Source of the DNA: an uncultured Actinomycetota bacterium
GTDB taxonomy: Bacteria > Actinomycetota > Actinomycetes > Streptosporangiales > Streptosporangiaceae
DNA length: 64,000 nt
Direction: 5' to 3'
NCBI GenBank assembly: GCA_963839095.1
Contig: CAWIUF010000004.1
Coordinates: forward strand, 669 to 64,668
Position numbers and translations under genes: made by a program. Positions 16,452 to 51,400 of this stretch are shown piece by piece. Position 1 is the stretch's first letter, and every line of letters starts with the position of its first letter. The notes beneath the pieces were generated by a model, which was given only the letters and a program-made list of their open reading frames with translations, made no database searches and was not told where the DNA came from.

Positions 16452-17413
16452 CTAGGCATTGTTCCCGTCGAACACGGCGACCAGGCGCGGGTCACCGAAG
16501 GAGGTCACGCGGATGATGCCCGCGCGGGTGACGGTGAGCACCACGACGCCGTAAGGCTGGAAGCCACCCTGGGCGTCGCGGACGTATTCCACGGCCGCGG
16601 GCTGGCCGTTCGCGCGGGTGGGGAACATGCGCCAGGTACCGGGCGGGCCAATGACGCGGTCGCGGAGGAAGGGCACGCAGGTTCTGACGCCGGCGAACCA
16701 GGTGCGCATCGGGGTTGCCTCCAGGACGGCGTTGCGCACCAGCAGCCGCTCCAGTGCGGCGGCGTCCGCGTTCTCGAACGCCGCGATGTACTGGTCGAGC
16801 AGGGCGCGGGCCTGCGGCGCCGCCGGCTCGGTGATCTGCTCGGCGGCGGGCGCCAGTTCCTCCATCCGCGCGCGGGCGCGCTGCAGTGCGCTCTTGACGG
16901 CAACCGTGGTGGTGCCGAGCATGACCGCGACCTCGGCCGCGGGAAATTCCAGCACGTCCCGCAGGACCAGAACGGCGCGCTGCCGGGGCGGCAGGTACTG
17001 CAAGCTGGCGATCAGGGCCAGCCGCAGCCCCGCGCGCGCGGCGACGATAGCCGCCGGGTCAGCCGGACGTTCACCACCATTGTGTCCGGTACCGGGTCCA
17101 GCCAGGTGATTTCCGGGTCAGCAGGCCGTGGGTACACTTCGGGATCGGGCTCGGGAGCGCCCAGGCCAGACGGCAGCATCCGGCGGGCGGGCTTGGCCAG
17201 AGCGGTCAGGCAGGCGTTGGTGGCGATCCGGTACAGCCAGGTCCGCATCGATGACCGGCCCTCGAACCCGTCGTAGGAGCGCCAGGCGCGCAGGTAGGTC
17301 TCCTGGACCAGGTCCTCCGCGTCGGACACCGAGCCGAGCAGGCGGTAGCAGTGCGCGAACAGCTCCCGCCGGAACGGCTCGGCGTACTCGGCGAATGCCG
17401 CGCTATCCGGCAC
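16452..17413 (-). pseudogene. ECF sigma factor with SnoaL-like C-terminal domain (SigJ/TIGR02960-like), one frameshift
   Basis: Region 2 is in ORF 17012..17413 (..DLVQETYLRAWRSYDGFEGRSSMRTWLYRIATNACL..). Region 4 plus the NTF2-like domain is in ORF 16452..17003. The frames join at ~17072-17080. Confidence 0.75.
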
Positions 17414-17416
17414 CGG

Positions 17417-23032: not shown

Positions 23033-23234
23033 GCACCCAAGCCGGCGCGGTGCCGACCTCTAACTCTGCGAAATGTAGTATTTCAGTCACATCCGCACCA
23101 TATGCAACACGCCTCCCTGTGGCTTACACCGCTGGCTCGACGGCTGCCGCTGACCGGAGCAGGGAAAGCCGTTCCAGCTGATTAATGCAAGGGAATGATG
23201 GCGTGCGCTGAGCCGCCGGGGGCAAAATGGCCGG

Positions 23235-25132
23235 GTGACATCGGTCTGGCCCACAATGCCTGAGATGCTCGCCTTGCGTGACACGGATCCGCGCCAGGTG
23301 GGTGTCTACGGGTTGCTCGGCCGCCTGGGGGAGGGCGGGCAGGGCGTCGTGTTCCTGGCCGAGGGCCCGACCGGGAACCCGGCGGCGGTCAAGCTTATGG
23401 CGCCGACTACCGATCCGCAGGTCCGGAGCCGTTTCCTGAAGGAGGTCGCCGCCGCGCAGCGGGTCGCCCGGTTCTGCACCGCGCAGGTTCTGGACGCGGG
23501 GATCTTCGAACGGCGGCCGTTCATTGTCAGCGAATACGTCAACGGGCCCTCACTGGTCGAGGTCGTCGAGCAATTCGGGCCTCGCGGCGGCGCTGCCCTC
23601 GAGCGCATCGCCGTCGCCACGCTGACCGCGCTGGGCGCGGTGCATGCCGCCGGGATGGTGCATCGCGACTTCAAGCCGGGCAATGTCCTGCTCGGGCCCG
23701 ACGGGCCAGTGGTGATCGACTTCGGGCTGGCGGCCGTCCCCGGGATGACCACGGTCCTTTCCGGCGACGTCCTCATCGGAACTCCGGCGTTCATGGCCCC
23801 TGAGCAGCTGGCTGGCACCCGGGTGACCGCGGCGGCCGATATGTGGTCGTGGGCCGTGACGATGGTATTCGCGGGCACCGGCGAGCAGCCCTTCAAGGGC
23901 GACTCGCTGACCGCCACGGCCTACGCCATCCTTCATGCCGAGCCGCGTTTGGGCAGCCTTCCCGAACCACTGCGCTCGCTGGTCTACAAGTGCCTCGACA
24001 AGAACGCAGCGGGACAGGCCGTCGGCCCGCGGTGCGCTCGGCGAGCTGGTGGCCGCCGGAGCGCGGCTTACGGGACCGATGCCGCCCCCGGTCGCCGCGC
24101 CGTCCGCGGATGAGGAGACCCCTAGCCCGCAGCGTGCGCCGGTCATGCCGCCCAGACCGCGGCCCGGCAGCGTCGATGGCCTGATCAGCGCCCGCCCGGC
24201 GTCCGGGCCGGGGGTGGCGTCCGGATCCCGGTCAGCACGGCACGGGAGTCGTCATCGCACCCGGTGGCGCCGGCGGGCCCCGGTGCTGCTGGCCGCGTGC
24301 CTGCTGGCCATCGCGGTCGGCGTGCTCGTCGTTAGTCTCCCCCGGTCCGGCCCGGCATCGGACCAGCTAGCGGGCAGCCGTACTCCGGCGAGCAATCCAG
24401 TCGACGCCCAGACCGTGGCGAGGAACAAGGCCATCGCCTGGATCCTGCAGCAGGTCGACCGGGCCGCCCTCGTGTCCTGCGACCCCCAGGTATGCAGGGC
24501 CCTGGTCCGTGCGGGCTTCCCGTCCGGAAACGTGTCGCAGCTCGGGCCGGCGTCGAATGATCCGCTCGGCTCGGCTCTGGTGGTCGTCACCACGCCCGTC
24601 CGAGCTCAGTACAGGAGCCGGCTGGCTTCTGTCTACGCTCCGGCCATCATCGCCAGCTTCGGCTCCGGGGCCAACAGGATCGACATCCGCCTGGTCTATC
24701 CCGGCGGTGCCGCCGGCTACGACGCCGTTCGGCAAACGGACTTGCGCCACAGGAAGGCGGTCGGCGCCGAGCTGCTGGCGAACAGCCACATCAAGGCCTC
24801 GGCCGCGGCCAGGGCGCAGCTTCTCAGCGGCGATGTCGATCCCCGGCTGCCGGAGCTCCTCGCCTACATGGCCGACCGCCACCCCGTGCGCATCACGGAT
24901 TTCGTCGACCAGTCGCCTGGTGGCGGACCTGCCAGCCTGCTGCGGTCGGTAGACCTGGCCACGGTGGTCAGCGCGGCGCAGATGACTCGTGCCGCCTACG
25001 TCGGCTGGATGTACGCGCTCATCGGCCAGCAGCAAGCCGAGTATCGCCCCGCCTCCTGGCAGACAGCTCACGCTGCCTGCTGGCGGGTCCGTGCTGAGGA
25101 TCGAGTACGGCGCGCCGAGCCCGCTCAGCTAG
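23235..25132 (+). pseudogene. membrane Ser/Thr protein kinase with an extracellular domain, two frameshifts
   Basis: GEGGQGVVF..AVK..HRDFKPGNVLL..DFGLA..GTPAFMAPE kinase core. Frame change at ~23995-24010 (..CLDKN / DRPSARGALGELV). TM segment APVLLAACLLAIAVGVLVV. Second change at ~25055-25070, giving the natural-looking end ..LTLPAGGSVLRIEYGAPSPLS*. Confidence 0.75.
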
Positions 25133-25249
25133 CTGGGGTCCGGGCCTGGTCGGCCAGGACAGGGCCGGACGCGTCCCGCTGCGCGGCCGGAGCGCCCTCG
25201 CGCTCCCCTCCAAGTAGGCGCGAGGACGCTGCCGACCTGCAGCGCGTTG

Positions 25250-25440
25250 ATCTCGGTAAAGTTAGGAAGAAACAGGAAGACAACTCCTGCATTAGGCACT
25301 TTAGGTGAGCACAGATAGGAAGTAAAGAGTATTGACGAGATGAGTCGAGAAGAGAAGTGCAGCCCGGTATGGTTAGGAGTGGGCAGAAGAGCTAGAATTT
25401 TCTATCCTCTTCGGGTGGGGATGGTCATGTGGCTGGAGGC
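25250..25440. other. low-GC, purine-rich spacer with TTAGG repeats
   Basis: TTAGG at 25262, 25292, 25301 and 25373 (plus ATAGG at 25315). AGGAAGA repeated at 25264 and 25274. TTGACG at 25332. In strong contrast to the surrounding GC-rich DNA. Confidence 0.6.
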
Positions 25441-32230: not shown

Positions 32231-32857
32231 TTACGCGGAGCCGTCGCCGGTGCCCGGGTCGATGAAGAAGTTGTCGCGGAACAGCCCGGTCGGGTCGTAG
32301 CGCCGCTTGAGCGCCCGGAGCCGGGTCAGGTGCCCGGGCGGGAACGCCCGCTCGAGCACCTCCGGGCCGGTCGCGGTCTCGAAGCTGAGGTACAGGCCCT
32401 CCATCTGCGGGACGAGCTTCTCCCACCACGAGTCGATCCCCGAAGCGCGGGAGCCGAACGCGGCCACGGAGAAGTTCGCCTCCCGCCACCCGTACGCGGT
32501 GGCGTCGGCGGCCACATCGGACACCGCCCCGCCTACGGCGCGGATCGCGCAGAAATACGAGGCGCCTGCCTCGAGCATCGCGGCGACCTCCGTCGCGAAG
32601 GCTGGCGTGAGGTGGCGGACCAGCCCGGAGCGCGAGTGCGGCTCGCCCTGGCCCTGCTGCGGCGCTTCGCTCAGCATCGCCTGCATGAGCTGGTCGTAGC
32701 CGGTCAGCGTGATCGACTGGTCGAGTAGCGGGGCGACGCCGGCGATGGGCTGCAGCCGCTCGATGATCACCTCGGAGTCGTCGGAGTCGACCACCAGCAG
32801 CGCCTGGGCCAGCTGCCGCCCGCCCTGGCGGATGCCAGCCAGCCGGAAATCAGCCAG
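32231..32857 (-). pseudogene. C-terminal half of an FAD-linked oxidase (BBE domain); the FAD-binding N-terminal half is missing
   Basis: ..ATAYGWREANFSVAAF.. and ..LRALKRRYDPTGLFRDNFFI.. (BBE tail). Homology starts at ~32857, abutting the ydbT-like stop at 32850. Confidence 0.6.
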
Positions 32858-34144
32858 CCGGGCCGCTAGCCTCCGCGCTGCGGGCCCTCCGGCCGAGGGC
32901 GGCCAGCTCGTCGAGGAGTTCCCGCGCCTGGTCCGCCGGGCGATCCCGGAACGCCGCGTGCGCCCGCCGCCCGGCCGCGTCACCGTGCACCGAGGCCAGC
33001 GACAGCCGCCGCTGCACCGGCCCCTGGGTGAACCGGACGCTCTGCAGCTTCTCCAGTTTCATGTACACGGTCTTCCTGGTCACCCGCCCGGTGACGGTGA
33101 CCGCCATCAGCTCGTTGTGCCCCGAGGCCAGGAAATGGTAGCTCAGCGGCGCCTTGATCCGCGCCCGGCCGGCGGCCGGGCCAGCTCCGGCCGGTCAGGA
33201 CCGAAGACCAGCCCGATCAGGTACTGCGCCTCGCTCATGGGGCCCACCGGGAGCAGGGCCTTGGTCAGGCCGCCGGCCTGCGGCCCGGAGTCCCGCCCGG
33301 CTACCCCCGCAACATCAACCACAAGACGACACCAGCCGAACGGGCGCCAGATCAGTGGTTGCACCAGCCGGACTGCCTGCACCCGGCGGAACGGGATCGT
33401 CTCTGCCACCGTGCTCAGCAGCCCGCGACGGATCCTTATCCCGTCGTGGGAGGTGGCCACCGTGAAGCCGTAGCGGCCCGTCAGCTGCCGCCAGGTCCTG
33501 GTCACGAGCCCGAGCGCGAACACGCCGAGGGTGGACTCCGACGCGAGGAACAGGGCGGGCGTCGCCTCGGCGGCGGCCACCGCGACGGCCGCCAGGGCCG
33601 CGAACCTGGGCGCGGCCCGCAGCAGCGTGGCCCCGATCACCCGGCCCGCCGGGACACTGATCACCGGGCGCTCGGCGGGCTCCGGGGCGGCCGGGTCGAG
33701 ACCGTGGTGCCCGGCCAGCAGCACGGTCCGCAGCCGGGCGGCCTCCCCGACGGTCAGGTAGGCCAGCCGGTCGCCACCCTTCCCGGCGCCGGCCAGCCTG
33801 ATCCGCAGGCACGCCAGGCCCAGGACGCGCGCCAGGAACGGCCGCACCACGTCGACCGCCTGGATCCGGGCCATCGGGAGCTGCCGGGAATCGCGGCGCA
33901 GCAGGCCCGTCTCGATGCGCAGGGTGGCGCCGTCCAGCTTCCACCGGGTGACCAGCCACCGGACGAAGCCGGCCACCACCAGCGCGGCGGCCCCCGCCAC
34001 CTGGATGACGTAGGCCCGCAGGCCGTCGGCCGTCACCAGGCTCAGCACGGCGATGCCGAGCAGGCTGGACAGCAGCCGTCCCGCGTTGATGAACGGCGAC
34101 AGCGGATGCAGGCGATGCCAGCCCGCCCCCAGTTCCTCGGTCAC
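32850..34144 (-). pseudogene. YdbT-like membrane protein with three bPH_2 (DUF304) domains, one frameshift
   Basis: GTG 34144 (GTGA overlap with ydbS-like). Two PH repeats with TM pairs are in ORF 33143..34573. The third (..MAVTVTGRVTRKTVYMKLEKLQSVRFTQGPVQRRLSLASVH..) is in ORF 32850..33107. The join is at ~33160-33170. Confidence 0.7.

Positions 34145-36379: not shown

Positions 36380-36389
<10 letters not shown>
35235..36389 (+). CDS. single-pass membrane protein with a beta-propeller-like ectodomain, coupled to the ECF sigma gene
   Basis: GTGA overlap with the sigma stop. TM segment WLTPLAAAAAVVLIVVVAAVAI. Repeated ..DG..L.. strands resembling TolB-type blades. Confidence 0.65.
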
Positions 36390-39980
<3,591 letters not shown>

Positions 39981-40078: not shown

Positions 40079-40175
40079 GAACCCAGGTTACAGTGTCCGG
40101 CCCCAATTTCTCGACCGAATTCTTGTGGCTAGCCACAACCAGCTGATCATGCGTGCGGCGCGGTGACGAACGCGG

Positions 40176-41348
40176 TCACAGGTCGCCCAGGTCGCTGAGC
40201 CTCATGGATTCCTGGTACCAGCGGTAGTACCAGCGGCCGATGATCTCCTGCTCGGACGGCACCAGCACCCCGCCGCGGGCGTAGGCGCGGGACTTCATGT
40301 TCGGCTGGCACCATTCCGACGCGGCGAAATCCTGCTCGTTGACCCGGTGGAAGAGCTCTACGGTGTCGCTCAGGTCGTACCCGGCCACCGTCGACGGCGG
40401 GAACAGCCACTCGCACACCACCGTGGTGACCTCCGCGCTCACCGGCTCGAACCGGTGCGCGATGACGTGATCGGGCAGCAGCGACAGGAAGCAGTTGGGC
40501 CGCATCACCATGCCGTAGTACTTGCGGTCGTCGTGGTCCTCCAGTCCCGGCAGCCGGGGCAGCACGGTGCTGCCGCTGACCGAGAACGAGTCCTTGTGCT
40601 CGGCGAACAGGTAGCCGTTGGTGTCGTAGGTGACGGGCGCGCCCCCGGCCAGGTTGCGGAACTGCGGCAGCGTGTCCACCAGCTCGGGGTGGATGGCGTT
40701 GCAGTGGTAGCACTCCTGGAAGTTCTCCTGGATGATCTTCCAGTTCGCGGTCACCGTGTAGTCCACCCGGTGGCCCACGACCAGGCCGGCCAGGCCGTAG
40801 CGGCCGAACTTGGCCCGGTCCCCGCCGAGCCGGAAATCCAGCTGCGGCCACACCAGGTCCTCCAGCGGCGCCGGCTCCTCGGCCAGGTTCAGCCAGACCA
40901 TGCCGTGCCACTGCCCCAGGTGCACCGGGTGCAGGCCGAAGTCGGCCTTGTCGGCGGTGCCCATCGAGCTCCAGTTGGGCGCGCTCATCAGGCTGCCGTC
41001 CAGCCGGTAGGTCCAGGAGTGGTACGGGCAGCGGATCGACCGGCCGACGTCGCCGCGGTCGGTCAGGCACAGCGTCGAGCCGCGGTGCCGGCAGACGTTG
41101 AGGAAGGCACGCAGCTCGCCGTCGCGGCCGCGGACCACGATGACGTTCTCGTTCCCGACGGTGACCCGCACGAAGCGGCCCGGCGACGGCACGTCCTCGG
41201 CCCGGCACACGTACTGCCACTGCCGTTCGAAGATGTTCCGCTTCTCCCGCTCGAAGATCTCGGGGTCGGTGTAGTACCGGCCGGGCAGGGTCGGCAGGAA
41301 CATCGTGGCCGGGGCCATGGTCATGGCTCGCTCCCTTCGCTGACTCAC
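40176..41348 (-). CDS. Rieske [2Fe-2S] oxygenase alpha subunit (VanA/GbcA-like, no beta subunit)
   Basis: CRHRGSTLC...CPYHSWTY Rieske motif and a C-terminal catalytic domain with ..ECYHCNAIHPEL... The start may be ATG 41324. Confidence 0.85.
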   Translation of the reverse strand: MSQRRERAMTMAPATMFLPTLPGRYYTDPEIFEREKRNIFERQWQYVCRAEDVPSPGRFVRVTVGNENVIVVRGRDGELRAFLNVCRHRGSTLCLTDRGDVGRSIRCPYHSWTYRLDGSLMSAPNWSSMGTADKADFGLHPVHLGQWHGMVWLNLAEEPAPLEDLVWPQLDFRLGGDRAKFGRYGLAGLVVGHRVDYTVTANWKIIQENFQECYHCNAIHPELVDTLPQFRNLAGGAPVTYDTNGYLFAEHKDSFSVSGSTVLPRLPGLEDHDDRKYYGMVMRPNCFLSLLPDHVIAHRFEPVSAEVTTVVCEWLFPPSTVAGYDLSDTVELFHRVNEQDFAASEWCQPNMKSRAYARGGVLVPSEQEIIGRWYYRWYQESMRLSDLGDL

Positions 41349-41422
41349 GCTAGCTACACGCTACGACGGGGGTCAGCCTGACCAGCAAAGACGGTATCCA
41401 GCTCCATTCCCGGCCGCCTGAC

Positions 41423-43657
41423 CTACAGGTCGAGGACGAGGCGCGCGGTGCACGAGCGGGATACGCAGATCATCATGCAGTCCCCGGCCGCGCGCTCCTC
41501 CTCGGTCAGCACCGAGTCGCGGTGGTCCGGCAGGCCGGACAGCACCCCGGTCTCGCAGGTGCCGCAGGTACCCTCGGCGCAGGACGACAGCACCCCGACC
41601 CCGGCCTCCTCCACCACGTCGAGGATCGAGCGGTCCGGCGGGACCGTCAGCCGCAGCTCGCTGCGGGCCAGTTCCACGTCGAAGGCCCCGGCCCGGACCG
41701 GCGCGCTCAGCGGCCGGGCGCTGAACCGCTCCACGTGCAGCGACCGGGGCGGCCAGGCCCGGCAGCGCTCCTCGACCGCGGCTAGCAGCGGCTCGGGGCC
41801 GCAGCAGTAGACCAGCGTGCCCGGCTGCGGCGTGCCCAGCACCGAGTCCAGGTCGAGCAGTCCCGTCTCGTCCTGCGGGGCTACCGTGACCCGGTCGCCG
41901 TACCGGGCCAGCTCGGGCAGGAACGCCATCGAGTCCCGCTGCCGCCCGCCGTACAGCAGCCGCCAGTCCGCCCCGGCCGCCGTCGCCGCCGCGATCATCG
42001 GCAGGATCGGCGTGATCCCGATGCCGCCCGCGATGAACTCATACCGCGGCGAGCCCGCCAGCTCGAAGTTGTTGCGCGGCCCGCGGACCCGGACCGTGTC
42101 ACCGGCCCTTAGCCGGTCGTGGACGAACATCGAGCCGCCGCCGCCCCGCTCGTCGCGCAGGATGCCCAGCCGCCACACGTGGCGGTCGGCCGGGTCACCA
42201 CATAGCGAGTACTGCCGGGTAGGCGCCCCGGACAGGATCAGGTCCACGTGCGCGCCCGGCGCCCACGGGGGCAGCGGGCTGTCCGCGACCTGGCGCAGGG
42301 TCAGCGCCGCCACGCCGTCCGCAGCCTCGTCCTTGCTCTCCACCCGGACGTCCGCCTCGAACTCCCGGGTGAGCACGGTCACGCTGACCGAGTCGCGCCG
42401 CACGGTCTCCACGTGCGCGTGATGCTCCGCAGCCGCGGTCGCCGGGAACGCCAGGTGCAGGTTGTCCCAGACGTACATGTTCGGCGTGGTGCGGTAGCGC
42501 ACCGGCGGGGCGGCGATCGTGTAGTCGCCGAGGACCGGCAGCGCCTCCTCCAGCGCGACCTTCGCCTCGAGGCGGGCCAGCGGCGCGCCGAGGCAGCCGT
42601 GCATCCCCTCGCCAAACCCCAGGTGCCGGAACCGCCCCCGGGTCACGTCGTACCGGTCGGGATCGGCGAACCGCCGCTCGTCGCGGTTCGCGGCCCCGTA
42701 GACCAGCACGACCCGCCCGCCGGCCGGGATCGTGACGCCGTGCAGGGTGACCTCGCGCGACGTCGTCCGGCCGACCAGCTGCAGGGGAGTGGCCAGCCGG
42801 ATCGCCTCCTCGACCGCGTCCGGGACCAGGGCCGGGTCCTGGCGCAGGATGGCGCGCTGATCCGGGTTCTCGGCCAGCAGCTTGAACAGCGTCCCGATCA
42901 GCCCGGCGGTGCTCTCCACCCCGCCCAGGAACAGCACCATCATCAGGCCGAGCACCTCCGAGGCGACCCCGAAGTCTTCCTCGGCGAACGGCACGCCGTC
43001 GATCTCGGCGGTGACCAGGTGGGTCACCAGGTCCCCGCGCGGGCGGGCGCGCCGCTCGTGCAGCAGGTCGATGAAGTAAGCCTGGATGCCGGCCGTGGCG
43101 GCCTTGGCCACCGGGGTGAGCCGGGAGTCGTCGGGCTTGCGGTCCTTGAGCTCGTGCACCCACCGGTTGAGCTGCTCCCGGCCCTGCGCGCGGGCGGCCG
43201 GCAGGCCGAGCAGGTCGAAGAACACCTCGTTGGGTGTCGGCCAGGCCAGTTCCTGGGCCAGGTCCACGGTGCCCCGGTGCCGCCAGGCGTCCACCAGGCC
43301 GCGCACCACCGCGCGGACGGCGTCCTCCCGCTCGGCGATCCGGTTGGGCAGCAGCTGCGGCTGGATCATCCGCCGGACCTGGTCGTGTCGCGGGTTGTCG
43401 ATGTCCGGCAGGAAGCCGGGGCCGCTCTGGTCCTTGGCGGTGTCGTCGATGTCGATGCCCTCGTAGGACAGGAACGTCTGCGGGTCCGTGGCGGCCGCCC
43501 GCACGTCCTCGAACCGGGACAGCGCCCACCAGTTCCACTTCTCGCTGTAGAACACCGGGGCCTCGTCGCGCATCCACCGGTACACGGTGAACGGATCAGC
43601 CTGGAACTCCCGGCTGAACGGGTCGTACTCCGTCACCTGCGTCGAGCTGATGCTCAT
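41423..43657 (-). CDS. self-sufficient cytochrome P450 fused to a phthalate-dioxygenase-reductase-like domain (FMN/NAD + plant-type 2Fe-2S)
   Basis: ATG 43657 after AAGGCGGGA. P450 part: ..GGVESTAGL.., EEAIR (ExxR), FGEGMHGCLGAPLA heme loop. Then a ~25-aa linker, RQYSL flavin motif, GGIGITP NAD motif, and C-terminal CAEGTCGTCE..C ferredoxin. Confidence 0.85.
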   Translation of the reverse strand: MSISSTQVTEYDPFSREFQADPFTVYRWMRDEAPVFYSEKWNWWALSRFEDVRAAATDPQTFLSYEGIDIDDTAKDQSGPGFLPDIDNPRHDQVRRMIQPQLLPNRIAEREDAVRAVVRGLVDAWRHRGTVDLAQELAWPTPNEVFFDLLGLPAARAQGREQLNRWVHELKDRKPDDSRLTPVAKAATAGIQAYFIDLLHERRARPRGDLVTHLVTAEIDGVPFAEEDFGVASEVLGLMMVLFLGGVESTAGLIGTLFKLLAENPDQRAILRQDPALVPDAVEEAIRLATPLQLVGRTTSREVTLHGVTIPAGGRVVLVYGAANRDERRFADPDRYDVTRGRFRHLGFGEGMHGCLGAPLARLEAKVALEEALPVLGDYTIAAPPVRYRTTPNMYVWDNLHLAFPATAAAEHHAHVETVRRDSVSVTVLTREFEADVRVESKDEAADGVAALTLRQVADSPLPPWAPGAHVDLILSGAPTRQYSLCGDPADRHVWRLGILRDERGGGGSMFVHDRLRAGDTVRVRGPRNNFELAGSPRYEFIAGGIGITPILPMIAAATAAGADWRLLYGGRQRDSMAFLPELARYGDRVTVAPQDETGLLDLDSVLGTPQPGTLVYCCGPEPLLAAVEERCRAWPPRSLHVERFSARPLSAPVRAGAFDVELARSELRLTVPPDRSILDVVEEAGVGVLSSCAEGTCGTCETGVLSGLPDHRDSVLTEEERAAGDCMMICVSRSCTARLVLDL

Positions 43658-43721
43658 CGTCCCGCCTTCGCGACCGCCCATCGTCTCGCCTGCGCTACCC
43701 GATTGGACAGGAATTAGAATT

Positions 43722-43739
43722 TGTTGGATCGTTCCAACA
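43722..43739. promoter_or_regulatory. 7-4-7 inverted repeat in the AT-rich P450/LAL divergent spacer
   Basis: TGTTGGA-TCGT-TCCAACA, flanked by GGAATTAGAATT. Confidence 0.45.
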
Positions 43740-43923
43740 GCATCCCTCCGCGGATAACCCATGTCAATACTCAGGCGATCCCATTTCCCTACCACGTCGC
43801 GCGGAATGACCACCCGGGCACCGCCGGCGATGAGCGCCCCCCGCAGTTGTCCCGGCCGCGCCCACCAGGCACGGAAACAGCAGCGACCAGGGCGCCGCCG
43901 GGAGCTCGTGTGATGATAGAGCG

Positions 43924-46734
43924 ATGGGGTCTGCCAGTGGGCAGGAGTCCGGTGCCATTGCTGCTGTCTCCCCGGGTGCGGGAGGAGTCGTTCCGCGTAT
44001 TGGGCTGTTCGGGCGGCTCGGGGCGCGGGCGCGGGTGACGGTGGTGTCGGCGCCGGCGGGGAGCGGGAAGACGGTGCTGCTGCGGTCCTGGATCAGCGAG
44101 GCGGGCCTGGAGGGCAGCGCCGCGTGGGTGCCGGTGGGGCGGGATGAGCGGGATCCGCAGCGGTTCTGGGCGTCGGTGCTGGGGGCGCTGCGCGGGACGG
44201 TTCCGGGGGCGGGGCTGGTGCGGGAGCTGACGGCGGCGCCGGACCTGGACGGGTGGGCGGTCGTGGAGCGGCTTTTGAAGGACCTGGCGCCGCTGGCGGA
44301 GCCGGTCTGGCTGGTGGTCGATGACGTCCACCTGCTGGGGCCCGACCAGGCGCTGCGGCAGCTGGAGCTGCTGATGATGCGGGCCCCGGATGCGCTGCGG
44401 TTCGTGCTGTGTACCCGGCATGACCTGCGGCTGGGGCTGCACCGGCTGCGGCTGGAGGGTCAGCTGGCCGAGATCCGGGCCGGGGATCTGCGGTTCAGCG
44501 TGGCCGAGGCGGGGGAGTTGTTTGCCGGGGCCGGGGTGGAGCTGGCCGACCCGGCGATGGTGATGCTGCATGAGCGGACCGAGGGGTGGGCGGCCGGGCT
44601 GCGGCTGGCGGCGCTGTCGCTGGCCGGGCATCCGGATCCGGGCCGGTTCGCGGCGGAGTTTTCCGGCAGTGAGCGGACGGTGGCGGAGTACCTGCTGGAT
44701 GAGGTGCTGGACCGGCAGCCGGAAGACGTGCGGCGGCTGCTGCTGCGCACCAGCGTGCTGGAGCGGGTGTCCGGCCCGCTGGCCGATGCCCTGGCCGGAG
44801 GCTCGGGCGGAGAGCGGGTGCTGCAGGAGCTGGAGGTGGCGAACGCGTTCGTGGCCTCGCTTGACGCGGGCCGTTCCTGGTTCCGTTACCATCGCCTGTT
44901 CGCCGACCTGCTGCAGCTGGAGCTGCGACGCACCGCGCCGGGGGAGGTCACCGGTCTGCACGGGCTGGCAGCGCAGTGGTTTTCGGAGCACGGGTTCCCG
45001 GTGGAGGCGATCCGGCACGCGCAGGCGGCGCGGGACTGGAGGCTGGCCGCCCGCCTGCTCGCCGGGCACTGGTCTGGCCTGCATCTGGGCGGGCAGGCCG
45101 CGACGGTGCACGAGATCCTGGCCGGGTTCCCGGCGGGGGCCGCGGCGGCGGATGCTGAGCTGGCGGCGGTGGCGGCGGCCGATGAGCTGGCGCAGGGATC
45201 ACTAGAGGCCGCGGAGCGGTATCTGGAGGTGGCGGCGCGCGGGGCGGCGTCGGTGCCGGCGGCCAGGCGCGGGCAGGCGCAGGTGCTGCTCGTGATCATC
45301 CGGCTGCTGGTTGCCCGCCACCGCGGGAACCCGCCGGCGGTGGCGGAGGAGGCGCGGCGGCTGCGGGCCGCGGCCGAGGCCCCGGAGGTGGCGCCCGGCC
45401 TGGGCGAGGAGCTGCGTGCGCTGGCTCTGATCAGCCTCGGCAGCGCCGAGTACGGGGCGGCCCGGATCGAGGATGCAGCGGCGCACCTGGAGCAGGGCGC
45501 GGTGCTGGCCCGCCGGGTCGGGCGGCCCTATCTGGAGTTCACCGGCCTGGCGTACCAGGCGCAGGTCGAACTCGAGCGGTCGTTCGCACGGGCGGCGGAG
45601 CGCGGCAGGCAGGCGGTCGAGCTGGCCGAACGGCACGGCTGGACCGACGAGCCGGCCGCTGGAAGCGCCTACATCGCACTCGCAGGCGCGCTGTTCTGCC
45701 AGGGGCGGCCCGACGAGGCAGAGCCCTGGGTCCAGCGCGCCGAGCGCACCGTCATGCCGGAAGCCGAGCCCGCGGTGGGGGCGGGGATCTGCTTCGTGCG
45801 CGGGCTGCTGGAGCTGGCGCGCGGCCGCTTCACCGACGCGCTGGCCGCCTGCCGGGCCGCCGAGCGGCTCTCGGGGCACCTCGCCGCCCCGCACGGCAGT
45901 TATTTCGTCACGTCGACGCGGGGATTGCTGCTGCACGCCCTGGTGCGCCTGGGCGCCATCGACCGCGCCGAGCAGACCCTGGGCGGCCTGCGTAACGAGG
46001 ACCGCGACCGCGGCGAGACCCGCGTCGCCGAGGCGGTGCTGCGGCTGGCCCAGGACGACCCGCGCGCGGCGATCGCCGCGCTGGCGCCGGTTCTGGACGG
46101 CTCCGCCCCCGTGGCCTGGCCGAACTGGCGGGTTAGCGTTTTCGTGCTGGAGGCGGTCGTCCGGGACGCACTCAGCGACCGGGCCGCCGCCTGGCGCGCG
46201 CTCGAGCGTGCCCTCGATATCGCCGAGCCCGATCGCATGCTCTTCCCGTTCCTCCTCTACCGTGCGCCGGGGCTGCTGGAGCGCCACGCCCGGGACTGCG
46301 CCAAACACGCGGCCCTGGTCTCGGAGATCCTCACCCTGCTTCCACCACTGGAGCCAGGCCCCGCGGAACCGGCCCCCGATGGGTATCCGGGGCCCAGGGC
46401 GGTACTGGGAAGCGGGGAACCCCCCCGTGGCGAAAGGTGGTCTGGGGGAGATCGTTCCCCCGAGCTGATAGAGCCGGTGAGTCGCAGCGAGCTGCGGGTG
46501 CTGCGTTACCTGCCGACGAATCTGTCGGCCCCGGAGATCGCCCGGGAACTGTCGGTGTCGGTGACCACCGTGCGGACGCACATAAGCCACCTGTTCGCCA
46601 AGCTCGGCGCCCACCGCCGCACCGAGGCCGTCGCGCGGGCCCGCGATCTGGGCCTGCTCGCACCATCCCCCGTGCGCCGCACTGGTCAGCCCCGCGCAAT
46701 CGAATTATGCCCGGGTCCACGCCGCTTGGCGTGA
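43924..46734 (+). CDS. large ATP-binding LuxR-family regulator (LAL/MalT-like)
   Basis: 936 aa. Walker A VVSAPAGSGKTVLL, a long helical/TPR-like middle, and C-terminal HTH ..LRVLRYLPTNLSAPEIARELSVSVTTVRTHISHLFAKLG... Confidence 0.85.
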   Translation: MGSASGQESGAIAAVSPGAGGVVPRIGLFGRLGARARVTVVSAPAGSGKTVLLRSWISEAGLEGSAAWVPVGRDERDPQRFWASVLGALRGTVPGAGLVRELTAAPDLDGWAVVERLLKDLAPLAEPVWLVVDDVHLLGPDQALRQLELLMMRAPDALRFVLCTRHDLRLGLHRLRLEGQLAEIRAGDLRFSVAEAGELFAGAGVELADPAMVMLHERTEGWAAGLRLAALSLAGHPDPGRFAAEFSGSERTVAEYLLDEVLDRQPEDVRRLLLRTSVLERVSGPLADALAGGSGGERVLQELEVANAFVASLDAGRSWFRYHRLFADLLQLELRRTAPGEVTGLHGLAAQWFSEHGFPVEAIRHAQAARDWRLAARLLAGHWSGLHLGGQAATVHEILAGFPAGAAAADAELAAVAAADELAQGSLEAAERYLEVAARGAASVPAARRGQAQVLLVIIRLLVARHRGNPPAVAEEARRLRAAAEAPEVAPGLGEELRALALISLGSAEYGAARIEDAAAHLEQGAVLARRVGRPYLEFTGLAYQAQVELERSFARAAERGRQAVELAERHGWTDEPAAGSAYIALAGALFCQGRPDEAEPWVQRAERTVMPEAEPAVGAGICFVRGLLELARGRFTDALAACRAAERLSGHLAAPHGSYFVTSTRGLLLHALVRLGAIDRAEQTLGGLRNEDRDRGETRVAEAVLRLAQDDPRAAIAALAPVLDGSAPVAWPNWRVSVFVLEAVVRDALSDRAAAWRALERALDIAEPDRMLFPFLLYRAPGLLERHARDCAKHAALVSEILTLLPPLEPGPAEPAPDGYPGPRAVLGSGEPPRGERWSGGDRSPELIEPVSRSELRVLRYLPTNLSAPEIARELSVSVTTVRTHISHLFAKLGAHRRTEAVARARDLGLLAPSPVRRTGQPRAIELCPGPRRLA

Positions 46735-46882
46735 ATGTCGCGACGACCTGGCCGCCTTCGGCCTTAGCGCCCGGCTTGGCCAACCACCACGCACGCTGGC
46801 CGCCTGGGTCCGCCCGGATTTTGCGCGCCTCGGTGGTCCAACCGCCGCCCTGGGTATCGCTTCAGCGAACACCTTGATCCCA

Positions 46883-46948
46883 GTAAATCATCACAACTGT
46901 ACGATGCAGACCCATCTAGCCGGGCACGACGCTTGGAAGTATCCCAGT
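46883..46948 (+). repeat. repeat R1, copy a
   Basis: TAAATCATCACAACTGTACGATGCAGACCCATCTAGCCGGGC..GGAAGTATCCCA. About 75% like 47640-47712 by eye. Confidence 0.5.
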
Positions 46949-47048
46949 AGAACAGGCAGGAGCATCAGGCAGCCACGCTTGTCCAGCGACTGCCCGGCAC
47001 TTGCCTCGCATATCGTCCTCTGATGAGGGCCGAGAAGGCAACGAAACT

Positions 47049-47267
47049 ATGGCTGAGCAGACCGGACCGGTCTGGTACGAGATCCGCGTCCGCGGACTCC
47101 TGGGCAAGACACTACTCGAGGCCTTCCCCGGCATGGGTGCGCGAGCTCACGAAAAGGAGACCGTGCTCTGCGGGCCAGTGGCCGACCAGGCGGCGCTGCA
47201 CGGCGTGCTAGCTGAGATCGAGGCGCTCGGCCTGGAGTTGCTCGAACTCCGCCGCACGCGCGATTGA
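47049..47267 (+). CDS. small conserved actinobacterial protein of unknown function
   Basis: ATG 47049. MAEQTGPVWYEIRVRGLLGKTLLEAFPGMGARAHEKETVLCGPVADQAALHGVLAEIEALGLELLELRR resembles a widespread ~70-aa family (..Y.L.V.G.L.....F.......T.L.G...DQA.LHG.L......G..L.....). Confidence 0.6.
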   Translation: MAEQTGPVWYEIRVRGLLGKTLLEAFPGMGARAHEKETVLCGPVADQAALHGVLAEIEALGLELLELRRTRD

Positions 47268-47299
47268 AACCATTTCTGATTTCACTTACCGGCCGGGAA

Positions 47300-47377
47300 G
47301 CGATATCCGGGGCTGACAGGTTCGTCGGCAGGTAACGCAGCACCCGTGTCTCGCTGCGGCTCACCGGCGCTATTAGC
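47300..47377 (-). pseudogene. inverted scrap of a LuxR HTH, copy of the LAL segment 46465-46541
   Basis: The minus strand reads ..APVSRSETRVLRYLPTNLSAPDIA.., ~88% nt identity by eye to the LAL C-terminal HTH. No upstream domain. Confidence 0.6.
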
Positions 47378-47393
47378 ACCCACTCGCTGACGG

Positions 47394-47640
47394 GTAGCCT
47401 TTTCTACTCCCGTCTGGACCCCTACCCCGTCCGGATCGCTTTCCGCGCCGGGCTGGAAGAGCCCGTCGAGTGGATCTTCGCCCGCGACCTGCTGTCGCGG
47501 GGCATCCAGGGCGCCAGGTCATCGGCGACGTGCAAGCGCGGCCGTCGCCTGGACCCGCGGGCGGCGAGCCAGGCAGCCAGGAAAGCGGCCACATCGACAT
47601 CGACGCCGAACTGAACAACCTGCCCAGCCAGGCGTCATAA
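47394..47640 (+). pseudogene. SsgA/SsgB-family (sporulation cell-division) gene remnant: N-terminally truncated, frameshifted, internally deleted
   Basis: ..LFYSRLDPYPVRIAFRAGLEEPVEWIFARDLLSRGIQG.. matches the SsgB core (..DPYAV...F....E.VEWVFARDLL..G). The tail ..ESGHIDIDAELNNLPSQAS* is in another frame. Confidence 0.6.
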
Positions 47641-47712
47641 GAAATCATCCCGACTGTATGACGGCGGCTCATCTAGCCGGGCGAGAGACTTGCAAACAGT
47701 CGGAAGTATGCC
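47640..47712 (+). repeat. repeat R1, copy b
   Basis: See 46883-46948. Begins at the SsgA-like stop codon. Confidence 0.5.
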
Positions 47713-47727
47713 ACGAACCGCTTAGCA

Positions 47728-47938
47728 ATTTCGCCATGGATGTCATCGACGCCGGCGCTCACAGCGCAAGGCGCCAATCATCTCGCGGAATCAGAACCAG
47801 CCCACTGCGCAGTGCCGGCTGAATCGCGGATCGAAACTACCGTCCGCGGCGAGTCGCCCACCCCGCACCATGCTTCACGCAACCAGAACAGGAGACCAGC
47901 TTCCAATGACATCGCTCAGCCAGCCCAAGACGCCGCCG
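47728..47938 (+). repeat. repeat R2, copy a (promoter/leader plus the first 11 codons)
   Basis: ~85% identical by eye to 48668-48879. Ends right after ATGACATCGCTCAGCCAGCCCAAGACGCCGCCG. Confidence 0.75.
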
Positions 47939-48610
47939 ACCGGTGAGCCTCCCTTCAAAGGCCCGAAAACGTGCGACGCGAGCGCGATGCTCGAAATCCA
48001 CCGCGCGCTGCGGCGCTCCTTCGGCGAAGCTACCAAGCTCATGGACGGGGTGGCCGAAGGTGACACGAAGCACGCGTCGGCCGTCGCCACGCAACTCAAC
48101 TTGATCTCGACCGCGCTCCACGCCCACCACGAGGGGGAGGACTCACGACTCTGGGACATGGTGAGCGGCCGGGCACCTGCCTGTGTCCTTCACGTCGACC
48201 GGATGAAGCGTCAGCACGCTGGCATGCTGGTGCACCTGCAAGACCTCGACCGGACCTTGCCTGCCTGGCGCGCCACCGCGGCGAAGGAAGCCGCCGGCCC
48301 CGTCCGCTCCGCGCTCCACGGAGTGTCCGCGGCACTGGCCGAGCACTTCCCGGACGAAGAAGCCACCATCGTCCCGGCCATGGAGCATGTGCTCACCCAG
48401 AGCGAGGAGAACTGGTTCGGCAAGCACGGCCGGGCTGCAACCCCTAAGGGTCAGCTATGGAACATGGTCGGCGCCATCCTCGCCGCCCAGCCCGACGGGG
48501 GCGCCGCCTGGCTGAAGAAGAACATGCCCGGGCCCGCTGCGCTGGTATGGCGATGGATCGGCGCCCCGCGCTACGCACGCTTCCGGGCAGCACTGGAAGG
48601 CCGCCGCTAG
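47906..48610 (+). CDS. hemerythrin (HHE cation-binding) domain protein
   Basis: ATG 47906 after AGGAG. ..MLEIHRALRRSF..LHAHHEGEDSRLW..HFPDEE... Confidence 0.7.
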   Translation: MTSLSQPKTPPTGEPPFKGPKTCDASAMLEIHRALRRSFGEATKLMDGVAEGDTKHASAVATQLNLISTALHAHHEGEDSRLWDMVSGRAPACVLHVDRMKRQHAGMLVHLQDLDRTLPAWRATAAKEAAGPVRSALHGVSAALAEHFPDEEATIVPAMEHVLTQSEENWFGKHGRAATPKGQLWNMVGAILAAQPDGGAAWLKKNMPGPAALVWRWIGAPRYARFRAALEGRR

Positions 48611-48667
48611 GAAGCGGCCCTCGGATCACCCGGCTGACCCAGCTTGTCATCAGCCAGGCTGTCGCCC

Positions 48668-48879
48668 ATTTCGCCGTGGATGTCGTCGACCCCGGCGCTC
48701 ACATACCCGAGGTGCCAGTCATCTCGCGGAATCAGAACCAGCCCGCTGCGCAGTGCCCCGCCAGTCGCGGACCGGAACGCGCCGTGCCCGGCGAGCCGCC
48801 CACCCGCACCATGCTTCACGCAACCAGAACAGGAGATCAGCTTCCAATGACATCGCTCAGCCAGCCCAAGACGCCGCCG
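48668..48879 (+). repeat. repeat R2, copy b
   Basis: See 47728-47938. Confidence 0.75.
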
Positions 48880-49170
48880 CTGTACACGCCCCGCGGGAAG
48901 AGTCTCGCCCTCGTGCTGCTGGCGATGACCCAGTTCGTGATCGTGATCGACGCCTCGATCGTCAACGTCGCGTTGCCGTCGATCGGCGCCGCCCTGCACT
49001 TTGCGCCAGGCTGACCTGTCGTGGGTCGTGAACGCGTAGGTACTCACCTTCGGCGGGTTTCTCCTGCTCGGCGGGCGCGCGGCCGACCTGCTCGGGCGCC
49101 GGCGCATGTTCATGCTCGGCCTCCACGCCGTGGTCGCGATCGGCCTGGCCGCTGGGGCCGCCATGATCAT
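48847..49170 (+). pseudogene. N-terminal remnant of a DHA2-type MFS transporter (frameshift + nonsense + truncation)
   Basis: MTSLSQPKTPP..LALVLLAMTQFVIVIDASIVNVALPSIG... Frame change at ~49003. TAG at 49037-49039 replaces the Tyr of ..VVNAYVLTFGG... Nothing after TM2-3. Confidence 0.7.
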
Positions 49171-49263
49171 CCGGGCCGCCCGCGGCGGCGGAGACCGGCC
49201 GCGTCAGCTCGCACGCTGCAACACCAGCAGGCCCATTCATCCATCAATAGAAAGCGAAGTATC

Positions 49264-49896
49264 GTGAAGTTTCTCGTCCTCGGAGCAACCGGGCGCACCG
49301 GCGTCCTCTTCATCAAGAAGGCAGTCGACCAGGGACACCAGGTCACTGCCCTCGTCCGGCGGGCCGACGCCGCCGTTGACCCGCGTACTCGAATCCTCAG
49401 CGGCGACGTCACCGATGCCACCATGATCGCGTCAGCGGCCCGAGGCCACGACGCGATCATCAGCACGCTCGGAGTGAAAAGCGCCCGCGAGACCCCAACG
49501 CTGGTCACCAACACCGTCCGCGCAGTCATCGCATCCGCGAAAACATCAGGCGTTGACCGTTTCGTCATCGTGTCTGCGTTCGGAGTCGGCGACTCCCTCG
49601 CCAAGGCCTCATTCCTCGTAAGCCCCCTATTCCGAACCGTACTTCGGAAAACCTATGCAGACAAAGCCGCCTCGGAAGTGCTCTTGAGGGCCAGCGATCT
49701 GAAATGGACCCTCGAATACCCCGGAGCATTGAACAACGGTGATAGCACCCGCTACAACGCCATTTCACTCGAGGACGTCACGAAATTGCCGATCTTCCCC
49801 TCAACCTCTCGCGCAAACGTCGCTGACTTCCTCCTCCGCTCCGCCGTGGAAGACACCTTCATCCGTCAGATCGCCGTAGTCACCGACGCCAAATAG
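49264..49896 (+). CDS. NAD(P)H-binding (NmrA/BVR-B-like) oxidoreductase
   Basis: GTG 49264. Rossmann motif KFLVLGATGRTG. 210 aa. Locally lower GC. Confidence 0.75.
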   Translation: MKFLVLGATGRTGVLFIKKAVDQGHQVTALVRRADAAVDPRTRILSGDVTDATMIASAARGHDAIISTLGVKSARETPTLVTNTVRAVIASAKTSGVDRFVIVSAFGVGDSLAKASFLVSPLFRTVLRKTYADKAASEVLLRASDLKWTLEYPGALNNGDSTRYNAISLEDVTKLPIFPSTSRANVADFLLRSAVEDTFIRQIAVVTDAK

Positions 49897-50347
49897 GTCA
49901 CGGCTCGTCCGTGTTATCGCAGGCCGCGAGCAGCGGATGATGCCCGTAGCCTTTGAAATTCGCTTCCGCGAGTCCCTTGTCGCTGTGCGCCTGCACGACG
50001 GTCGCGTCCAGCCGGATGCAGGCCACGCCCTCCAGCTGCCGGTCCGGGACCCGGACCGGTGCCAGGGGACCGGCCTGCGCCCAGGCGTGCCCGGCGTGCC
50101 CTGTTCACCGCGGCGGTGACGTTCCTGCGGGCGCGGTCCCCGCCGGACGCGGCCCCACCAGCCAGGCACAACACGCCCCCGCCGACACCAGCCAAGCCCT
50201 TTCCCGCTCATCACGCGACCAGAGAGGCTGCCCGATGGCCCATCGACGCCGGACGAGCCGGGGTCGGGATCATCTTCGTGGCACGCCCGACCGGCGATGG
50301 GCTACGCTCGTCATCAGTAGATCGTTCCAACTTGCAGGCTAGGGGAG

Positions 50348-51400
50348 GTGCCGATGCCGTCCCCGGCCGAGCCGCCGGCTTCCCGGCCCACCATCCGTGA
50401 CGTGGCCGAACGCGCCGGCGTCTCCAAGTCCCTGGTCTCCCTCGTCCTGCAGGGCTCGCCGAAGGTCAGCGCCGACCGCCGCGCCGCCGTGGACCAGGCC
50501 ATCGCCGAGCTCGGCTACCGGCCCAACGCAGCCGCCCGGACCCTGCGCGAGGGACGCAGCCGGGCGATCGGGGTGCTCCTCAACGACGTCCGCCACCCCT
50601 GGTACGTCGACCTGCTCGACGGGCTGATCTCCGTCGTGGAAGCCGAGGGCAGGCACCTGGTCCTCAGCGGCGGCGGCCGGCTCGACCGGCGCACCGACGA
50701 TTCGGTCCTGCGCGGCTTCCTCGGCCTCGAGGCCGACGGGTTCGTGCTGGCCGGCACCCAGGCCAACTCGCCGGTCATCGCCGAGATCGCCGGCGTCGTC
50801 CCCACCGTCGCGGTGGGCTGGCGCGATATCGACCTGCCGCGGGTGGACGCGGTGGCGAACGACGACCTGCTCGGCGCGACGCTGGCCACCCGCCACCTGA
50901 TCGACCTCGGCCACCGCCGGATCGCTCACATCTCCGGGCGCGTGTCCGGCACCGGCAACGTGGTCCCGAAGCTGCGCCAGCAGGGCTACGAGGACACCAT
51001 GCGGGCCTGCGGCCTGGGCGAGTACCTCAGGACCGAGTCGGCCGACTTCACCGAGGACGGCGGCTACCGCGCCACCGTGCGCCTGCTCAGCGGGCCGCGG
51101 CCGCCCACCGCGATCTTCGCCGTGGACGACCTGACCTGCGTCGGCGCCCGGTCGGCGGCCTCGGAAATGAACGTCGACGTGCCCGGCCGCCTCTCGCTCG
51201 TCGGCTACGACAACACCTACCTGGCCCGGCTGCGGTCGATCTGGCTCACCAGCGTCGACAGCGCCGGCTTCGACTGCGGCCGGCTCGCCGCCCGCACCCT
51301 GCTCGCTCGCGTCGCCGACCCGGGGCGCCCGGCCGGGCTGCACCTGCTGCCCCCCGCCCTGCAGGTCCGCGGCTCCACCGCCCCTCCGCCGTCAGGTTGA
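50348..51400 (+). CDS. LacI family transcriptional regulator
   Basis: HTH TIRDVAERAGVSKSLVSLVLQG..V.. plus a periplasmic-binding-protein-like domain. Confidence 0.85.
   Translation: MPMPSPAEPPASRPTIRDVAERAGVSKSLVSLVLQGSPKVSADRRAAVDQAIAELGYRPNAAARTLREGRSRAIGVLLNDVRHPWYVDLLDGLISVVEAEGRHLVLSGGGRLDRRTDDSVLRGFLGLEADGFVLAGTQANSPVIAEIAGVVPTVAVGWRDIDLPRVDAVANDDLLGATLATRHLIDLGHRRIAHISGRVSGTGNVVPKLRQQGYEDTMRACGLGEYLRTESADFTEDGGYRATVRLLSGPRPPTAIFAVDDLTCVGARSAASEMNVDVPGRLSLVGYDNTYLARLRSIWLTSVDSAGFDCGRLAARTLLARVADPGRPAGLHLLPPALQVRGSTAPPPSG

Follow-up and report, generated by a model that had tools for sequence, protein, structure and literature searches.

A class VII-type P450–reductase fusion apparently from outside the CYP116 family, and the Rieske oxygenase gene behind it, in an uncultured member of the Streptosporangiaceae

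Class VII of the cytochromes P450 has been defined through the CYP116B enzymes (PMC12126322), and those with assigned roles act, according to excerpts of two reports, in the catabolism of 2-hydroxyphenylacetate (PMC8449657, PMC11889516). In P450 RhF (CYP116B2), CYP116B46 (PDB 6kbh) and the enzyme of PDB 6laa, a heme domain, an FMN/NAD-binding domain and a [2Fe-2S] domain follow one another on a single chain. Two-component systems, in which the P450 is paired with a separate reductase resembling phthalate dioxygenase reductase (PDR) and BenC, are known from the guaiacol demethylase GcoA/GcoB. CYP199A35 of Amycolatopsis and its reductase form another such pair (PMC10838780). Here we describe a P450–reductase fusion gene and the Rieske oxygenase gene directly behind it on a 64,000-nucleotide stretch of DNA (the 64-kb window; GCA_963839095.1, contig CAWIUF010000004.1, positions 669 to 64,668) from an uncultured member of the Streptosporangiaceae. 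A preliminary description, made from the sequence of the window, had proposed that either one reductase domain serves both oxygenases or a reductase gene of the Rieske system became fused to the preceding P450. Comparison with relatives makes it probable that the two genes are instead unrelated units side by side, namely an autonomous P450 fusion of a LacI-associated type and the leftover Rieske gene of a separate cassette. The analysis covered the 64-kb window, the rest of the genome being outside its view, together with 80 orthologous loci (L001-L080) obtained by a scan of species-representative genomes. The G+C content of the window was ∼70%, real genes had a GC3 (G+C at third codon positions) above 0.9, and the nearest relatives were Streptosporangiaceae genomes assembled from metagenomes.

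The fusion gene translated without a break from its first codon to its stop. Along the protein lay, in order, the I-helix motif GGVEST, EEAIR (the ExxR motif), FGEGMHGCLG, a linker of ∼25 aa, RQYSL, GGIGITP and CAEGTCGTC...C. The Pfam scan, which placed p450 at aa 88-371 (E 2.1e-19), NAD_binding_1 at 541-629 and Fer2 at 663-734, agreed with the domain calls made earlier (P450, PDR-type reductase and, in the neighbouring gene, Rieske), and all of the reported motifs were located. Residues 7-744 were colinear with both solved full-length enzymes of class VII, 6kbh (E 2.9e-130) and 6laa, which bears out the CYP116B-like layout that had been proposed; residues 437-744 were likewise colinear with PDR (2pia). 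The sequence features that define class VII are present: a heme domain with the Cys-ligand loop and ExxR, and in the same polypeptide a reductase resembling PDR that has sites for flavin, NAD(P)H and a [2Fe-2S] cluster, in the order heme-flavin-FeS. From this likeness to CYP116B in layout and reductase, an electron path from NAD(P)H through FMN and the Fe2S2 cluster to the heme is expected, in which NAD(P)H would reduce the FMN and electrons would pass to the C-terminal plant-type cluster; from there they would reach the heme, either within one polypeptide or across to a partner subunit.

Frameshifts in the nearby metH gene had raised the suspicion that the fusion was an assembly artefact. Aligned over 2235 nt with the independent assemblies L003 and L004, the fusion gene contained no indels, so that the in-frame junction between P450 and reductase is not an artefact of assembly; the existence of ∼67 fused loci likewise rules this out. 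The HVETV motif of the linker was kept in fused and split orthologues, and the length of the linker was variable, that of L008 being 13 aa shorter.

The two halves of the protein had different affinities. The reductase domain was 46% identical to that of CYP116B46, and its best PDB matches were 6kbh (283 bits), 6laa (247 bits) and then phthalate dioxygenase reductase 2pia (198 bits). The heme domain, by contrast, was only 28.3% identical to the CYP116B46 heme domain; its best solved relatives were CYP130, CYP125-like enzymes and CYP199A4 (∼190-200 bits), and no CYP116B structure was among its 60 best PDB matches. By P450 nomenclature, at least 40% identity places enzymes in the same family and at least 55% in the same subfamily, and the heme domain falls short of the first value for CYP116. 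The reductase domain is homologous to the CYP116B reductases and the heme domain is that of a different CYP family; the fusion is class VII-type in its architecture and in the ancestry of its reductase, yet no CYP116 under the 40% rule. We regard it as an ordinary new member of the class VII-type P450s. The family to which it belongs is large, uncharacterised and actinobacterial and, unlike CYP116B, is usually linked to a LacI regulator and often found beside sugar- or cyclitol-type genes. A literature search returned no description of this P450 family, nor of it in the genera concerned, and nothing specific on characterised P450-PFOR fusions other than CYP116.

The fusion is ancient and probably works as an autonomous enzyme. 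Among the candidates scored in a protein search, 1641 were homologues at E ≤0.001. Nearly all of the 120 best-scoring ones were full length (∼745 aa), 70-93% identical and composed of the same three Pfam domains, and they were drawn from many independent assemblies; more than 100 full-length homologues had identities of 60-93%. P450 and reductase were in one frame in ∼67 of the 80 orthologous loci, including those of the cultured isolates Pseudonocardia charpentierae, Geodermatophilus siccatus, G. obscurus and Nostocoides japonicum. The fusion without any Rieske gene spanned Streptosporangiaceae, Pseudonocardia, Geodermatophilus, Nocardioides, Nostocoides, Actinomycetospora and others, and paralogues at 46-50% identity (L032, L035, L050) were likewise fused.

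Six loci (L065, L068, L069, L072, L077, L079) were split, with a P450 stop followed by a reductase ORF (open reading frame) that began at an ATG within the linker region, in another frame, so that stop and start overlapped (at ∼11200-11300 in each locus, in L069 at ∼5430). Their hosts were Geodermatophilus ruber, Modestobacter marinus, Blastococcus and three metagenome-assembled genomes (Frankiales, Frankineae and one binned as Chloroflexia). These pairs of a P450 gene and a three-cofactor reductase gene follow the same logic as GcoA/GcoB and the CYP199A35 system, from which the enzyme of the window differs in being fused. Three Modestobacter loci (L066, L067, L074) had the P450 alone, without a reductase. 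A quick neighbour-joining tree, with a fused paralogue as its root, placed both the split pairs and the lone P450s inside fused clades, and these forms are therefore secondary fissions; the fused and split states are interconvertible through a single-base indel in the linker. A stop or frameshift separating P450 and reductase in orthologues, which the preliminary description had named as evidence against a natural fusion, was thus found, and only in this nested, derived clade. Two further variants were observed. Protein P0092 (1158 aa, from a JGI metagenome) has two tandem P450 heme domains followed by one PFOR domain in a single polypeptide. In some database relatives of the fusion the reductase part is frameshifted, and gene calling gave aberrant proteins (L025 at 11701-11703, P0100, P0120); these are likely long-read assembly errors in metagenome-assembled genomes with isolate names beginning with MFD.

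GbcA (glycine betaine), the stachydrine demethylase Stc2 and the carnitine monooxygenase CntA are Rieske oxygenases that consist of an alpha subunit with the PF00848 domain and have no beta subunit. GbcA and CntA use PDR-type reductases (GbcB, CntB). The Rieske gene of the window resembles this group. Its product matched the Pfam families Rieske (5.2e-21) and Ring_hydroxyl_A (PF00848; 1.1e-40), contained the Cys/His motifs of the cluster (CRHRG...CPYHSW, the CxH...CxxH pattern) and an iron-site-like H-x4-H motif (YHCNAIH), and had 3n0q, Stc2 (3vca) and CntA (6y8j) as its closest solved structures. No beta-subunit gene followed; metH came next instead. The score against the GbcA equivalog of NCBIfam (NF058607) was 216.6 bits, short of the cut-off of 670, and neither the Pfam scan (VanA_C) nor NCBIfam gave a VanA match. 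The earlier assignment to a VanA/GbcA/CntA type therefore stands for the GbcA/Stc2/CntA part and not for VanA. The gene was also described as beginning 75 nt downstream of the fusion: it lies on the same strand and is intact, the GTG codon is 74 nt past the fusion stop, and the more likely start is the ATG 98 nt past it, behind the ribosome-binding site (RBS) GAAGGGAG. A 13-nt palindrome upstream of the gene (GGTCAGGCTGACC) was considered as an operator and dropped, as it is not kept in L008 or L025. The Rieske gene is under purifying selection, with dN/dS (nonsynonymous to synonymous rate ratio) values of 0.24-0.43, compared with 0.15-0.30 for the fusion and 0.13-0.21 for the LacI gene.

A Rieske homologue was found near the fusion (within 10 kb of the P450, as for all neighbour counts below other than that of LacI) in 3 of the 80 loci, and such counts vary with the tblastn thresholds. 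Two loci with 90%-identical fusions (L004, L078) had the fusion followed directly by metH, with no Rieske gene between them. The Rieske proteins of L008 and L025 were 93-94% identical to that of the window, and in both of these loci a 1.33-kb segment lay between the fusion and the Rieske gene. It carries a 439-aa gene on the opposite strand with a weak lipase-like match; a 357-aa plus-strand ORF in the same interval of L008 was dismissed as spurious, having no Pfam match and being rich in Gly, Arg and Val. The window is without this segment, with a 7-bp overlap at the junction.

Around other Rieske homologues a cassette recurred, consisting of a PucR regulator, a DAO flavoprotein, the Rieske oxygenase and a pyridoxal phosphate (PLP) enzyme of the Cys/Met-metabolism type, the last being the conserved partner. 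Examples were L081/82, L088 and L089, and OpuAC-type or oligopeptide ATP-binding cassette (ABC) transporters often stood alongside; the DAO flavoprotein and an OpuAC-type transporter were also present in L083. From the context, the substrate of the cassette is most likely an N-methylated or quaternary amino compound. The full cassette lay just downstream of the P450 in some Streptosporangiaceae (L009/L084, L093), L091 was intermediate, with a chimeric PucR/DAO remnant ahead of an intact Rieske gene, and in the window, L008 and L025 the Rieske gene alone was left of the cassette. No DAO, PucR or PLP-enzyme gene of the cassette was found in the 64-kb window. The tight spacing of P450 and Rieske gene is thus a derived state that arose by erosion of a neighbouring cassette: the Rieske gene is the survivor of a separate, PucR-regulated cassette that was eroded stepwise downstream of the P450, and deletions in the window brought it to its present distance. 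The Rieske block (40162..41418) had 94% DNA identity to L008/L025 (dS 0.125), the P450 90-91% (dS 0.22), and the LacI gene a dS of 0.33. These values hint that the block was exchanged between lineages more recently than its flanks.

The partners of the homologues also bear on the claim that this class of Rieske enzyme normally works with a PDR-type reductase, which did not hold for the relatives of the window protein. In two Streptomyces genomes (L083, 75% identity; L090, 60%) the oxygenase gene was followed immediately by genes for a Rieske-type ferredoxin and a Pyr_redox_2/Reductase_C (glutathione-reductase-type) reductase, at 9164-10701 in L083, in contrast to the GbcB and CntB type. No PDR-type reductase occurred in any of the homologue contexts examined, and a stand-alone GbcB/CntB-like reductase gene was not found in the window either. 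A dedicated reductase in an operon with a relative, put forward in the preliminary description as grounds for giving up its proposal, thus exists in other genomes.

On the other side of the P450, close relatives had, immediately upstream of the fusion, LacI orthologues 80-91% identical to that of the window. Of the 73 loci that could be assessed, 54 had a LacI-family gene no more than 600 bp from the P450. The window has a promoter-like sequence upstream of the P450, and the palindrome TGTTGGAACGATCCAACA overlaps its -10 element. The motif GTTGGAACGATCCA, preceded by TTGACA, was found at the same upstream position in the orthologues of L002-L018, and other genera had different CG-centred palindromes at that place. 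The palindrome had at one stage been listed as a terminator-like site and was reassigned to a LacI-type operator, since it is upstream of the gene and conserved there. With an adjacent LacI gene in the family and a CG-centred palindrome, the putative operator, in the promoter, the P450 gene has the features of a LacI-repressed catabolic gene. The native control of the family is accordingly pictured as a LacI repressor that would bind a CG-centred palindrome over the -10/+1 region, and both the P450 promoter and the candidate operator appear intact in the window.

The arrangement in the window was altered by an insertion. In L003, L004, L006, L007, L008, L025 and L080, which lack it, homology to 43631-43740 ran straight on to homology to 50284-50382, and the P450-LacI intergenic region measured 220-440 bp. 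The inserted DNA had a heterogeneous G+C content (0.756, then 0.66) and carried a LAL (large ATP-binding LuxR/MalT-like) regulator gene, a gene with a hemerythrin domain and sequence that is repeated within the insertion. The LAL gene does lie divergently beside the P450, as had been noted, and shares with LAL regulators the N-terminal AAA/NTPase domain, the MalT-like TPR region and the C-terminal GerE helix-turn-helix; its NCBIfam MalT match was below the cut-off. It had been taken as a sign of an inducible module. The relatives give this idea no support: an LAL homologue adjoined the P450 in none of the 80 loci (the sole match, of 35% identity, was ∼7 kb away in L029), and conserved synteny, as expected of a cognate P450 regulator, is thus lacking in them. 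The LAL gene came in with the window-specific insertion, which produced its adjacency to the P450 and moved the LacI repressor gene ∼6.6 kb away.

Gfo/Idh/MocA oxidoreductase genes were near the P450 in 44 of the 80 loci and xylose-isomerase-like TIM-barrel (AP_endonuc_2) genes in 40. Given the probable LacI control and the recurrence of these neighbours in other genera, the P450 likely acts in the cell on a compound resembling a sugar or cyclitol, which it might for instance hydroxylate or O-demethylate. As a separate observation, the flanks of P450-PFOR genes (L085, L087 and the 44 loci) repeatedly held Gfo/Idh/MocA and AP_endonuc_2 genes, PhyH dioxygenases and one to three LacI regulators, and resembled a sugar or cyclitol catabolic island.

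Under the reading of two unrelated units, the Rieske gene is now probably co-transcribed with the P450, and its product most likely receives electrons from an unlinked ferredoxin and reductase, as in many relatives where no partner is linked. Within the window, tblastn with PDR-type, Fer2, Rieske-ferredoxin and glutathione-reductase-type seeds (E ≤1) matched only the fusion and the Rieske gene, and scans for the Cys motifs of small ferredoxins gave out-of-frame matches only; the two approaches agree with the earlier statement that the window has no separate reductase or ferredoxin gene. Several points weigh against two unrelated units. At least two lineages (window/L008/L025 and L091) have kept the Rieske gene intact despite the decay of PucR and DAO, always near the P450-PFOR gene, and its retention could mean that it gained a function tied to this neighbour. 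The adjacency of fusion and cassette recurs in metagenomic lineages (L009/L084, L091/92, L093) and is commoner in the clade than 3 of 80 would imply. The alternative electron donor cannot be named within the visible 64 kb. The operator assignment rests on the form, position and conservation of the palindrome, and the substrates are read from neighbourhood statistics, the window itself holding no sugar or cyclitol genes.

One alternative is that the Rieske gene is turning into a pseudogene, possibly along with all of its neighbourhood, so that the adjacency would be without function. The four +1 frameshifts in metH next door, the loss of the DAO, PucR and PLP-enzyme partners and a Rieske dN/dS somewhat above that of its neighbours (0.29-0.43 against 0.13-0.30) are consistent with decay. 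The Rieske ORF, however, is intact in its cluster and H-x4-H motifs, has no frameshift relative to L008, and shows a dN/dS that is far below 1 and close to the values of copies still inside a cassette, and we consider a decaying locus unlikely.

We judge it quite unlikely that the reductase is shared, meaning that the PFOR domain of the fusion also reduces the orphan Rieske protein in trans and that deletion created an operon of two oxygenases and one reductase. The gap between the two same-strand genes holds no terminator-like site, the window offers no other reductase or ferredoxin, and two lineages lost the cassette partners beside the P450 but kept the Rieske gene under purifying selection; the PDR-type reductases of the related GbcA and CntA, known in general, fit as well. 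Intermolecular electron transfer from the CYP116B PFOR domain to other protein molecules has moreover been reported (PMC12126322). Where Rieske homologues have linked partners, on the other hand, these are a Rieske-type ferredoxin with a reductase of the glutathione-reductase type, in no case one of the PDR type, and cassettes far from any P450 (L081, L088, L089) also have no linked reductase, so that unlinked partners are normal for the clade. In the closest relatives (L008, L025) the opposite-strand gene divides fusion and Rieske gene, in the full-cassette loci the PucR regulator stands between P450 and Rieske gene, and 77 of the 80 P450 orthologues have no Rieske neighbour. A literature search found nothing specific on a natural reductase shared by a P450 and a Rieske enzyme. 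In a few Streptosporangiaceae lineages an orphaned GbcA/Stc2-like Rieske gene has stayed intact behind the P450 fusion although its own regulator and pathway partners decayed; that one fused reductase there serves a heme and a non-heme iron oxygenase seems very improbable to us. The last proposal, that a VanB/GbcB-like reductase gene of the Rieske system was recently captured by the preceding P450 in this lineage, is supported solely by the order of the genes today and by domains of a PDR-like kind, and is scarcely credible. Against it stand how old and how widespread the fusion is (fused in ∼67 of 80 loci across genera and in the paralogues, with 77 of the 80 loci lacking a Rieske gene), the affinity of the reductase domain to those of CYP116B and the split forms, which are phylogenetically derived P450 and reductase pairs without a Rieske gene.

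With the two genes as unrelated neighbours, the fusion should be annotated as a self-sufficient P450 of class VII type from a family other than CYP116, probably LacI-regulated and outside any Rieske or LAL module. The family represents a large, untapped actinobacterial source of single-polypeptide P450s for biocatalysis; its natural fused, split and tandem P450-P450-reductase variants form a series in which the effects of linker and fusion state on electron transfer can be compared, and its recurrent sugar/cyclitol gene context points to a testable class of substrates. For genome evolution, the locus shows how insertions and deletions can make a suggestive and probably accidental gene adjacency. 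The features of the locus are collected in Table 1.

Table 1. Position of the features of the locus in the 64-kb window and the evidence on which each was assigned.
Feature	Position	Strand	Basis
Predicted self-sufficient P450-PFOR fusion gene, 744 aa plus stop	41423..43657	-	Single ORF, Pfam, full-length structure matches
P450 heme domain, aa 1-405	42443..43657	-	GGVEST, EEAIR, FGEGMHGCLG, Pfam
Interdomain linker, ∼aa 406-430, contains AEHHAHVETVRRDSVSV	42368..42442	-	Motif conservation
PFOR-type reductase domain (FMN, RQYSL; NAD, GGIGITP)	41426..42367	-	Motifs, Pfam
Plant-type [2Fe-2S] site of the reductase domain, C-x4-C-x2-C...C	41450..41581	-	Motif scan
Beta-less Rieske monooxygenase, 382 aa from ATG 41324 (GTG 41348 alternative)	40176..41324	-	Pfam, PDB, RBS
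Promoter-like TTGACA (43767..43762) - N17 - GATGCT (43744..43739), with the overlapping palindrome	43722..43767	-	Motif scan
LacI-type palindrome, overlaps GATGCT (-10); putative operator	43739..43722	-	Form, position, conservation
Window-specific ∼6.5-kb insertion between P450 promoter and LacI gene	43771..50283	.	Comparison with seven relatives
LAL (MalT-like LuxR) regulator on the insertion	43924..46734	+	AAA_16/AAA_22, TPR_MalT, GerE
LacI-family regulator, conserved divergent neighbour, displaced	50348..51400	+	Pfam LacI, Peripla_BP
metH (cobalamin-dependent methionine synthase), frameshifted, outside the module	36380..39980	-	Pfam pieces, comparison with L008

The insertion had two kinds of internal repeat. 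Direct repeats 941 nt apart (47728-47938 and 48668-48879) duplicate the 5' region and the N-terminus (MLHATRTGDQLPMTSLSQPKTPP) ahead of the hemerythrin-domain gene (47870..48610) and of an ORF resembling the major facilitator superfamily (MFS), which is apparently truncated. Of a 78-nt inverted repeat, one arm (46464-46541) falls within the LAL gene at its 3' end, and the second is at 47300-47377.

The metH gene of the window consisted of five frame segments when compared with the intact 1202-aa MetH of L008, owing to single-base +1 insertions near 39025, 38612, 38358 and 37261, and the orthologues in L008, L025, L004 and L078 were single intact ORFs of ∼1200 aa. The copy in the window is either a recent pseudogene or the product of a local assembly error. 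These frameshifts call for caution about assembly quality or gene decay in the window, and the fusion and Rieske genes are unaffected by them. A gene for an extracytoplasmic function (ECF) sigma factor at 16452..17416 (-) also appeared split, into two overlapping ORFs in different frames, with region 2 in 17416..17012 and region 4, followed by a C-terminal extension, in 17117..16452. ORF pairs that overlap in a similar way occurred at 23199..25308 (+) and 32231..33194 (-), which suggests further frameshifts in the window.

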